From the IMG/VR virus record IMGVR_UViG_2526164618_000009: 11,667 nt of DNA; one strand, 5' to 3'. This DNA is from a virus. Taxonomy: Duplodnaviria > Heunggongvirae > Uroviricota > Caudoviricetes. The stretch's first letter is position 1; every line of letters begins with the position of its first letter. Made by a program: the position numbers and the translations under genes. Under the pieces are notes generated by a model that saw nothing but the letters and a program-made list of their open reading frames with translations, did no database searches and was not told the DNA's origin. Positions 8,539 through 11,230 of the stretch are shown piece after piece.

Positions 8539-9963
8539 ATGAACACCGATAAACAAGTTTACCCACTGTATTACGAAGCAAAAAATGACAAAGTAAGAAA
8601 ACGTCTCGGTATTAAAGGCGGTTTTTACTGGGCTGAAGCGAAAAAATTATCCATTGCCATCTCCCGTGGTGCTGTTGCGATTGACGATGCAGGCTACGAT
8701 GAAGATGACTTTAAAAAACCTGTTCGCGTCAATTTGCCCGTTGTTGATGACCTCCCGCCAGAAGGCGTATTTGATACGGAATTCTGCAACCGTTACGAAA
8801 AAGGCGGGGAAGATGGCATCACAATGGTATTTATCGCATCTTCTCCCTCTGTTCAGGACAAACCGGCCAGCACTGACAATACCAACGTCAACGGCGAAGA
8901 CATGACAGAAATTGAGGAGAACATGCTCCTGCCAGTTTCCGGTCAGGAACTGCCCATTCGCTGGCTTGCGCAACACGGCAGCGAAAAACCAGTAACGCAC
9001 GTTTCACGCGACGAACTCCAGGCATTACACATTGCTCGGGATGAAGAACTACCAGCTGTTACTGCCCTGGCTGTTTCCCACAAAACCAGCCTGCTCGATC
9101 CGCTGGAAATTCGCGATCTCCACAAACTGGTGCGTGATACTGACAGAGTTTTCCCTAATCCAGGCAATTCAAGCCTGGGGCTGATGACTGCTTTTTTCGA
9201 AGCATACATGGACGCAGACTACACCGATCGCGGTCTGCTGACAAAAGAGTGGATGAAAGGAAATCGTGTTTCACGCATCACGCGCACGGCTTCCGGCGCT
9301 AATGCTGGCGGCGGGAACCTCACCGATCGCGGCGAAGGTTTCGTTCACGATCTGACGTCACTGGCGCGCGACGTAGCCACTGGCGTACTGGCTCGTTCAA
9401 TGGACGTGGACATTTATAACCTTCATCCGGCACACGCTAAACGTGTCGAGGAAATTATCGCTGAAAATAAACCGCCCTTTTCTGTTTTCCGCGACAAATT
9501 CATCACCATGCCTGGCGGGATGGATTATTCCCGCGCCATCGTGGTTGCGTCAGTGAAAGAAGCACCGATTGGTATCGAGGTCATCCCCGCTCACGTCACT
9601 GAATATCTGAACAAGGTACTGACTGAAACCGATCATGCCAACCCTGATCCGGAAATCGTGGATATTGCCTGCGGTCGCTCCTCTGCCCCGATGCCGCAAC
9701 GTGTAACAGAAGAAGGAAAACAGGATGATGAAGAAAAAACGCAGCCATCTGGCGCAATGGCAGATGAACAGGCAACGGCTGAAACAATGGAACCGGATGC
9801 AACTGAACATCATCAGAACACGCAGCCGCTGGATGCTCAGTCACAGGTAAATTCTGTTGATGAGAAATATCAGGAACTACGGGCAGAACTCCATGAAGCC
9901 CGGAAAAACATTCCGCCCAAAAATCCTGTCGATGCAGACAAATTACTGGCTGCCTTGAGGTAG
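8539..9963 (+). CDS. Hypothetical 474-aa protein, C-terminus truncated by the IS600-like element (last two codons and stop come from the IS)
   Basis: Long ORF with a GAGG RBS about 10 nt upstream. It has a Gly-rich patch ([18 protein letters not shown]), an acidic low-complexity region ([35 protein letters not shown]) and a coiled-coil-like tail ([16 protein letters not shown]). The IS inverted repeat begins at 9956, inside the last codons. No family recognised by eye. Confidence 0.75.
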
Positions 9964-10010
9964 CCTGTGAGGTGTACTGGCAATAGCGGACACTACCATT
10001 TGTTCTTTTT

Positions 10011-10829
10011 TTAAGCAGCCATCTGATGATATTTTTCCCTGAAGGCTGCCGGGGAGATATTCCCCAGACGAGAGTGACGACGCTGACGATTGTAGAAAAT
10101 CTCAATGTATTCCCGTATTACTGAGATGGCTTCATCCCGGTTATTAAAACGATAGTGGCTCAGGCTCTCATTTTTCAGCGTTCCCCAGAAGCTTTCCATC
10201 GGAGCGTTGTCGTAACAGTTACCTTTACACGACATTGATGTTTTCAGACCAGACTGCTCCTGTATGACCCGGTAATCGTATGCGCAGTACTGTGAACCTC
10301 GATCAGAGTGGTGGATTAGCCCGGCAGGTGGGCGCTGGCTCCTGAGCGCCATAAACAGGGCTTTACCTGTCAGCTCTTTTGTCATGCGCTCTCCCATGGC
10401 GTAGCCGACAATTTCACACGTATAAACATCTTTGATGCCAGCGAGGTACAACCATCCCTCCTGTGTGGCAACATACGTCAGGTCCGCCACCCAGACCTGA
10501 TTTGGTGCTGTAGGAGCGAACGTCTGGTTCAGCAGATTTGGCGCAACTGGCAGATTGTGGTTCGGGTTCGTAGTCGCTCTGAACTTGCGTTTCTGCTTAC
10601 AGCGTAGCCTCAGCTCCTTACGAAGACGTGCAAGTCGGTCACGACCAACGATGATGCCATTCTCTGCCAGCTCCGTCTGGAGCCGCCGGGTTCCATATGT
10701 TTCGCGAGTGCGGATATGTGCCACCTTAATCTCCAGCTTTAGCCGCTCATCACTTTGTTTTCTGTCTGAGGGTTCATGCTGTACCCAGTTGTAATAACCG
10801 CTCCTGGATACACCAAATACCTGACACAT
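10011..10829 (-). CDS. IS3-family (IS600-like) OrfB, DDE transposase catalytic part
   Basis: 272-aa ORF MCQVFGVSRSGYYNWVQHEPSDRKQ...SDRGSQYCAYDYRVIQEQSGLKTSMSCKGNCYDNAPMESFWGTLKNE..., typical IS3-family integrase-like core, in the -1 frame relative to OrfA. Confidence 0.85.
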   Translation of the reverse strand: MCQVFGVSRSGYYNWVQHEPSDRKQSDERLKLEIKVAHIRTRETYGTRRLQTELAENGIIVGRDRLARLRKELRLRCKQKRKFRATTNPNHNLPVAPNLLNQTFAPTAPNQVWVADLTYVATQEGWLYLAGIKDVYTCEIVGYAMGERMTKELTGKALFMALRSQRPPAGLIHHSDRGSQYCAYDYRVIQEQSGLKTSMSCKGNCYDNAPMESFWGTLKNESLSHYRFNNRDEAISVIREYIEIFYNRQRRHSRLGNISPAAFREKYHQMAA

Positions 10830-10864
10830 CGCTTCAATGGGAAATTGTTGTCGCCATTGTTCGA

Positions 10865-11167
10865 TTAACGCGTATTTTTCAGCGACTCCTGTGCAAAATA
10901 CGCTGTTGCTTTTTTTAATATATCGCGCTCAAGGCGAGCTTCATTTAACGCCTTACGCAGTTGCAGAATTTCAGATTCCAGTTCAGCCACCGTGCGGGAA
11001 CCAGGAGTACCGAGCCCTTTTCTGGCGGCGGTAACCCATTGTCCTAAAGTGCCTTCAGGAAGAGATAATCGGGAAGCGCCTTCACTGATCGAAAGTTGAT
11101 TTTCAAGAACCGTTCTGACAGCTTCGGCTTTGAACTCTTTAGAGTAACGTCGGGTTTTTCTGCTCAT
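10865..11167 (-). CDS. IS3-family (IS600-like) OrfA, HTH/leucine-zipper part of the transposase
   Basis: 100-aa ORF MSRKTRRYSKEFKAEAVRTVLENQLSISEGASRLSLPEGTLGQWV...LERDILKKATAYFAQESLKNTR with the IS3-family OrfA HTH signature. Confidence 0.85.
   Translation of the reverse strand: MSRKTRRYSKEFKAEAVRTVLENQLSISEGASRLSLPEGTLGQWVTAARKGLGTPGSRTVAELESEILQLRKALNEARLERDILKKATAYFAQESLKNTR
10909..10915 (-). other. Candidate -1 programmed frameshift slippery run (A7 on the minus strand) for the OrfAB fusion
   Basis: The minus strand reads ATATTAAAAAAAGCA across the LKKA codons near the OrfA 3' end; the OrfB frame is -1 relative to OrfA. Whether the OrfB frame is open back to this site was not checked. 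Confidence 0.35.
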
Positions 11168-11230
11168 TATTAGCTCCTTCTGATGCCATTCTATTTCAGG
11201 AAGAGTGTCCGTTAAACTCAGGCTACCTCA

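Follow-up and report, generated by a model that had tools for sequence, protein, structure and literature searches.

IS600 of Shigella and E. coli belongs to the IS3 family, whose members move by a copy-out/paste-in mechanism. How this mechanism works in general, and how target duplications arise from it, has been described for IS911 and ISCth4 (PMC1636345, PMC7780238). In S. flexneri, deletions between IS copies of the virulence plasmid pINV and its reversible integration into the chromosome were reported by Pilla et al. in 2017, and pairs of IS600 are among the documented substrates of the pINV deletions (PMC5629016). A different kind of event which joins unrelated sequences is the repeat-induced chimeric contig of draft assemblies.

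The window studied here is a stretch of 11,667 bp and represents the complete contig AFHA01000046.1 of the draft assembly GCA_000213435.2, which is listed as S. flexneri K-671 in a published strain table (PMC6397287). It carries an IS600 copy between a truncated recE gene and a tnpC fragment (Table 1). The copy resembles other IS600 elements in its identity of 99.4-99.5%, the orfA/orfB arrangement with A7G run, the rve domain and the ends. It differs from them in lacking the 3-bp target duplication, in being 1 bp short, in abutting a 12-bp stub and in showing a marker mosaic of two copies. As in the pINV plasticity described by Pilla et al., homologous IS copies are involved, unrelated flanks are joined and target duplication is absent. 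However, PacBio sequencing established the integrations reported there, which occurred through IS1294, whereas the join in the window is known from one draft contig alone. The locus is also like chimeric contigs, as the join lies inside a multi-copy repeat of 1.26 kb, the contig ends soon after in a repeat, and contig-specific differences cluster in repeats and comprise homopolymer undercalls. Nothing at the locus departs from known IS biology of Shigella and the finding is already known in kind. The import of a further case is little. Deletions and flank swaps driven by IS elements are well known from Shigella, and so is plasmid integration. The practical gains are the corrected ends of IS600 and a 12-bp stub which serves as marker of a conserved deletion scar of S. 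flexneri.

Table 1. Features of the recE-IS600-tnpC region, in window coordinates
Feature	Position	Strand	Basis or remark
Prophage recE, 5' 1417 nt (exodeoxyribonuclease VIII)	8539-9955	+	NCBIfam PRK09709, Pfam Exonuc_VIII
12-bp stub TGAGGTAGCCTG	9956-9967	+	left inverted repeat (IRL) of IS600, bases 1-12
IS600 (IS3 family)	9968-11230	-	1263 bp; identity to annotated IS600, domains, ends
IS600 IRR end	9968		
orfB (rve)	10011-10829	-	
orfA (HTH_Tnp_1)	10865-11167	-	
A7G slippery run	10909-10916	-	predicted -1 frameshift
Switch from chromosomal (recE-linked) to tnpC-linked pINV marker pattern	11080-11136		marker bases, see text
IS600 IRL end	11230		
CAC, one copy of 3-bp target duplication	11231-11233		pINV loci L004 and L029: ...ATCACAC/IS600/CACCGG
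ISSfl3 (IS66-family) tnpC 5' fragment	11231-11667	-	to contig end; LZ_Tnp_IS66, zf-IS66, transpos_IS66

Identity and ends of the IS600 copy

The sequence, the arrangement of the genes, the slippery run and the ends all make the window element an IS600, a member of the IS3 family. Its nucleotide sequence is 99.4-99.5% identical to the copies annotated as IS600 in Shigella virulence plasmids, including those annotated as IS600 ORF1/ORF2 in pCP301, and to the same degree to RefSeq copies annotated as 'IS3-like element IS600 family transposase'. This identity extends over the whole of 9968-11230. The two consecutive ORFs, a helix-turn-helix OrfA and an OrfB with DDE/rve domain, are typical of IS3 elements. 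A -1 frameshift is predicted from the A7G run, and near-identical IS600 copies carry the RefSeq annotation 'programmed frameshift'. The terminal inverted repeats are imperfect, with TG...CA ends and arms at 9968-9994 and 11204-11230. The presence of IS600, claimed by an earlier sequence-only reading of the window, is thereby upheld.

The same reading had delimited the element as 9956-11230, which sets its left end 12 bp too far out. Almost without exception, database copies of IS600 align from window position 9968 (query base 13) and not from 9956. The full element has the ends TGAGGTGTAC...CCTCA and a length of 1264 bp, and eight independent copies with these ends in the fetched loci are bordered by perfect 3-bp duplications (CTA, ATA, CAC, AAC, CTG, TCT, CAG and CAT). 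These eight copies confirm both ends of the 1264-bp element as well as the 3-bp rule. The window copy measures 1263 bp because one G is absent at about 11202. The 12 bp at 9956-9967 are a separate stub.

A 1275-bp variant of IS600 with perfect 12-bp terminal repeats, corresponding to 9956-11230 as first delimited, is highly improbable. The perfect inverted repeat formed by 9956-9967 and 11219-11230 would fit such an element, but no second locus of it was found. In a search of 72,556 plasmids, 5,426 E. coli genomes and species-representative genomes, the 12 bp precede the IRR at the recE locus only, and apparent partial matches elsewhere share just 1-7 of the 12 bases. The duplications of the eight copies speak for the 1264-bp ends, and a duplication is still missing at the 1275-bp ends (CCT versus CAC in the window, GAG on the right in chromosome records). 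With the same low agreement of the flanks, 1-7 of 12 bases, there is no support for a general preference of IS600 for targets resembling its own end, which BLAST matches running into the 12 bp had suggested. Several of the IS600 copies with such matches have normal duplications in their flanks.

Next to the ends as now defined, the triplets read CTG and CAC in the window and CTG and GAG in the chromosome records. The 3-bp duplication seen in the eight other copies is therefore lacking in this one, in agreement with the earlier claim that no target-site duplication is present. A direct repeat of 3-4 bp, which that reading had expected to speak against a rearrangement if it emerged with precise ends, did not appear. 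The lack of a duplication characterizes the site rather than the element, and the copy does not occupy a simple insertion site.

The recE-gam scar of S. flexneri chromosomes

The left flank had been described as a plus-strand gene of 474 aa, and this gene was found to be a truncated recE. Its product matches positions 1-474 of the 877 positions of NCBIfam PRK09709 and also matches Pfam Exonuc_VIII. The PRK09709 match scores 922 bits, below the cut-off of 1269 bits, and the gene is truncated at 9955. Homology to the intact recE genes of EIEC VL40 and RMDEC465 stops exactly after this position. The ORF ends at TAG 9961-9963 inside the stub, so its last residues are stub-encoded. The tnpC fragment ends likewise within IS600, at TGA 11218-11220 on the minus strand; both flanking ORFs thus take their stops from IS600-derived sequence, as had been noted before. 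The exact 474-aa product is indexed in 865 blocks of a public collection.

The stub is identical to the reverse complement of 11219-11230, forming a perfect inverted repeat with the right end of the element. Only 0.01 matches were expected by chance and 2 were found with up to one mismatch allowed, so the stub is no chance match. An origin of the 12 bp from recE itself was rejected, as intact recE continues with CTCGCGG or ATCACGT past the break. The stub is all that is left of a second IS600 which once lay in recE in opposite orientation.

The junction of recE', stub and IS600 was compared in 16 fetched chromosomal loci; apart from one record titled E. coli (ECMA0423), they stem from about a dozen chromosome records of S. 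flexneri. It is identical in all of them, with the stub present at 16 of 16 junctions, and the right flank of IS600 is GAGCGCTTATCC, the start of gam. Two of the loci (L020 and L021) are diverged from the window by about 1.2-1.6% and possess the same left junction and gam. In most recE-linked IS600 copies of the chromosomes, orfA carries the nonsense codon E11*, which makes these copies defective.

The undisturbed arrangement was taken from prophages of enteroinvasive E. coli (EIEC). In EIEC VL40, recE reads ...CTGGCTGCCT/CTCGCGG... at the left break and, 504 bp on, ...CCAGTGAT/GAGCGCTTA at the right break, where ATG is the start codon of gam; in short form, the empty site is ...GCTGCCT/CTCGCGG...(504 bp)...GTGAT/GAGCGC. 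Compared with this site, S. flexneri has exchanged 504 bp for the 12-bp stub and one IS600. Lost with these 504 bp were the 3' end of recE and the leading two bases of the gam start codon. Comparison with related genomes lacking the IS copy had been proposed by the sequence-only reading as a way to the ancestral state; it did give a contiguous recE-gam region in EIEC VL40, with gam and not tnpC as the partner of recE. This differs from the account of that reading: the loss of 504 bp between recE and gam is seen in every fetched chromosome record with the junction, and it involves no join to tnpC.

By this comparison, the site between recE and gam is a genuine old IS600 deletion scar which is fixed in S. 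flexneri and needed at least two IS600 copies. One IS600 would have inserted into recE of a Rac-like prophage remnant beside an ipaH gene. A second IS600 in opposite orientation would then have been placed in the left inverted repeat of the first copy, 12 bp into it. The remainder of the first copy would have disappeared along with 504 bp of prophage DNA, leaving recE', the 12-bp stub, IS600 and 'gam. No target duplication is expected at such a scar, as the surviving IS600 owes its two flanks to different events. This order of events is inferred, and several routes would give the same sequence equally well. One copy may have inserted into the inverted repeat of the other, followed by a deletion starting exactly at an IS end. 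Alternatively, with two copies inverted and 504 bp apart, a deletion may have run from the terminus of one into the repeat of the other. Non-concerted integration is a third route. An IS600 without its first 9-12 bp (...CTGAGTTTAACGG) in finished genomes of S. flexneri, S. boydii or EIEC would point to an inversion or translocation and not to a deletion. A 3' part of recE preceded by the right end of IS600 elsewhere would also favor an inversion or translocation as the old event.

The tnpC junction and the virulence plasmid

The right flank had been read as a minus-strand fragment of an IS66-family tnpC, and this identity was confirmed by Pfam LZ_Tnp_IS66 and zf-IS66 and by NCBIfam transpos_IS66. 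Only the N-terminal part with LZ_Tnp_IS66 and zf-IS66 lies in the window, and the full tnpC ORF of about 530 aa with DDE domain is not found there. The junction IS600/CACCGGCTACAGG and the following 437 bp are about 99.5% identical to S. flexneri pINV. On pINV, the same IS600 has CAC on both sides, and the C-terminal part of tnpC lies directly to its left. Removal of IS600 and one CAC from pINV gives an uninterrupted tnpC frame of 536 codons (...KLACSRC/DVIVQAP...). The restored frame together with the CAC duplication shows that IS600 on pINV is a plain insertion. The partner CAC of this duplication is absent from the window.

The IS600/CACCGG junction was found in 50 plasmid records, all of them S. 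flexneri among the matches listed. Not one of 5,426 complete E. coli genomes has it, and tnpC of ISSfl3 is uninterrupted at this point in them. The right junction as it stands in the window, 1-bp deletion included, had no exact match in species-representative genomes. By its sequence, the right flank of the window is virulence-plasmid DNA of S. flexneri.

The sequence-only reading had proposed a search for other IS600 copies with flanks that complete the two broken genes. The pINV copy does complete tnpC, but the chromosome copies are flanked by gam. It had further explained the join by a deletion or inversion between two IS copies. The window gives no evidence of such an event within one replicon; its right junction is exactly that of pINV, where the C-terminal part of tnpC missing from the window lies to the left of IS600. 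An intra-chromosomal deletion or inversion would need a chromosomal composite of ISSfl3 and IS600 in K-671, recombining with the recE-linked IS600. Shigella chromosomes contain many IS600 copies, and remnants of IS66-family elements are present in the same island, including a TnpA fragment at 3658-4239. However, within the collections searched, the junction of IS600 with CAC and tnpC is found on S. flexneri plasmids only, and no fetched chromosomal locus carries it, which makes such an event very unlikely. What stands of the proposed rearrangement between IS copies is that the site is no simple insertion and that more than one IS600 was involved; a deletion or inversion joining recE to tnpC is not supported.

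Origin of the recE-to-tnpC join

The window IS600 is a mosaic with chromosomal markers on the left and a plasmid marker on the right. The A at 10229, 10416 and 10632 are private bases of the recE-linked chromosomal copy (L006, L013, L014). Position 11079 is C in the window, as in the largest number of the compared copies, while T is present in all four tnpC-linked pINV copies examined. The C at 11137 is also the commonest base among the compared copies, and the nonsense base of the recE-linked copy is absent. At 11151 the window has C as in the tnpC-linked pINV copies, giving residue R6 of OrfA. The marker bases at 11079 and 11137 place the switch within 11080-11136. The OrfA variant of the window (R6, G30) was found beside recE' in AFHA01000046.1 only.

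The contig starts inside IS1 and ends 437 bp past IS600 inside ISSfl3, another multi-copy repeat. Over 1-9967 it is collinear with the chromosomal locus L006. The join of recE, IS600 and tnpC was found only in this contig, and no other fetched contig with recE' has a tnpC flank. Compared with five closed chromosomes, contig-specific differences are situated in repeats, namely in IS1 at 125, in the 3' end of ipaH at 2905-3047 and in IS600 at 10737, 11137 and 11151. Two further differences from the same chromosomes, at 3664 and 11202, are homopolymer undercalls.

A repeat-induced misjoin in the K-671 draft assembly is, on this sequence evidence, the most likely origin of the recE-to-tnpC join. 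Reads of the recE-linked copy would have been chained to junction reads of the pINV copy across the stretch where the two copies look alike, and the last join would probably have been made by the assembler. This explanation is favored because the draft contig stops about one read length past IS600 in another repeat, because a single case stands against many chromosomes with gam, and because the window OrfA variant is found beside recE' in one contig only. It is also favored by the position of the contig-specific differences in repeats, together with the homopolymer undercalls. The marker at 11079 is a further reason. As the window has C there and the four pINV copies have T, a true crossover would be confined to a tract of 57 bp, despite the availability of an identical tract of 446 bp, whereas a majority consensus readily gives C. 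Against a misjoin, real homologous recombination would likewise leave a hybrid IS600 without duplication, and finished replicons of Shigella commonly show genuine changes brought about by IS600. The contig also crosses its other internal IS copies correctly, and the pINV copy of K-671 itself might carry C at 11079.

A real recombination in K-671 between the recE-linked IS600 and the IS600 in tnpC of ISSfl3 on pINV, by replicon fusion or flank exchange, is possible but clearly the less probable origin. It would account for the hybrid markers, which are chromosomal at 10229, 10416 and 10632 but of the pINV type at 11151, and for a right flank which is exactly the pINV junction. Both IS-mediated integration of pINV and recombination between IS600 copies are documented (PMC5629016). 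Moreover, two complete plasmid records (L030 and L031) carry the tnpC-linked IS600 with a different left flank lacking the duplication. On the other side, it is one case, on a draft contig which ends 437 bp later in a repeat, and gam is present in all fetched chromosome records with the recE'-stub-IS600 junction. The crossover would be forced into the 57-bp tract by C at 11079 versus T in 4 of 4 pINV copies, and it was IS1294 rather than IS600 that served in the integrations which Pilla et al. described (PMC5629016). More doubtful still is the specific form of this event in which pINV of K-671, a clinical isolate, was integrated through IS600 at the recE-gam scar as a natural cointegrate formed by an IS other than IS1294. 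If true, it would be one more natural case of pINV having integrated, here by way of IS600. The linkage of recE to tnpC in AFHA01000046.1 should not serve as evidence of genome structure unless supported by reads.

The window-specific SNP cluster at 2905-3047 was also considered as carry-over from the plasmid gene ipaH9.8. This was rejected, as the plasmid copy shows the common base at 2905 and is no longer homologous where the other three sites of the cluster lie. In another draft contig (L019), the same IS600 was found with a third flank, which consists of about 440 bp without plasmid match followed by an IS911 end.

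IS600 copy at the recE-gam scar and insertions in the same interval

At the recE-gam scar of the S. flexneri chromosome, the orfA of the IS600 copy carries a nonsense codon, E11* (window-equivalent 11137), in most chromosome records (L006, L007, L009, L013, L020 and L021). Because of this nonsense codon, the copy is probably immobile in these records. The IS600 copy of the window appears intact only because its right part has the bases of another copy. In L020 (CP178302) and L021 (CP182556), which represent two diverged lineages, the scar copy showed ~45 differences from canonical IS600 in its central ~580 bp (window-equivalent 10252-10832), and both of its ends were canonical. 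The scar copy of these lineages resembles a mosaic involving a related isoform of the IS3 family, formed for example via gene conversion.

Other IS elements were found independently inserted in the recE-gam interval of related EIEC prophages, RMDEC465 (L033) and VL40 (L034). One insertion is ISSso6, which lies between the two genes; the other is an IS600 flanked by a CAT duplication, at a recE site other than that of the scar. The early-region recE-gam segment is tolerant of repeated IS insertion.

IS600 copies with altered flanks or without duplication

Two complete plasmid records of S. flexneri, L030 (NZ_CP026771.1) and L031 (NZ_CP026791.1), contain the tnpC-linked IS600 with the usual CAC-tnpC right flank, a different left flank (...GCGCGTATAT) and no duplication. 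The plasmid of L031 is only 59.8 kb in size. The flank change is a real IS600-mediated rearrangement on the virulence plasmid pINV. The IS600 of plasmid pE2865-2 (L003, NZ_AP018810.1; 2990-3012 and 4277) also lacks a 3-bp duplication, with TGG vs TTC at its two sides. Upstream of the IRR end of this element, at a distance of 20 bp, TTCAT occurs a second time. The intervening bases are loosely IS600-end-like (GGAGGCAGACTGG) and may be another degraded second end.

A third type of right flank was observed in a draft contig of 4338 bp (L019, UDWA01000185.1), which has the same recE'-stub-IS600 junction as the window. Here the IS600 is followed by TTTAACAGACTTG..., with ~440 bp without plasmid match and then an IS911 end. 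This is a further case of either a flank swap or a misjoin in a draft assembly.

The ipaH island and base differences of the window

The host region of ipaH is a Rac-like prophage remnant which is heavily IS-eroded and carries Rha, KilR, YdaE, RacC and RecE'.

Features of the island around recE' in the window
Feature	Position	Strand
IS1	1-735	
ipaH gene	1222-2937	
IS66-family TnpA fragment	3658-4239	minus
Complete IS2	6348-7621	

Four substitutions private to the window are clustered within 143 bp (2905-3047), at and just 3' of the ipaH stop codon, and none of them was present in the five closed chromosomes compared. The plasmid ipaH9.8 copy has the common base at 2905, and its homology stops before the other three sites. 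These substitutions may stem from another ipaH copy, from gene conversion or from an error in the consensus. Compared with all genomes analyzed, the window also has 1-base deletions in short homopolymers at 3664 and 11202 (a T run and GG to G), which look like draft sequencing undercalls.
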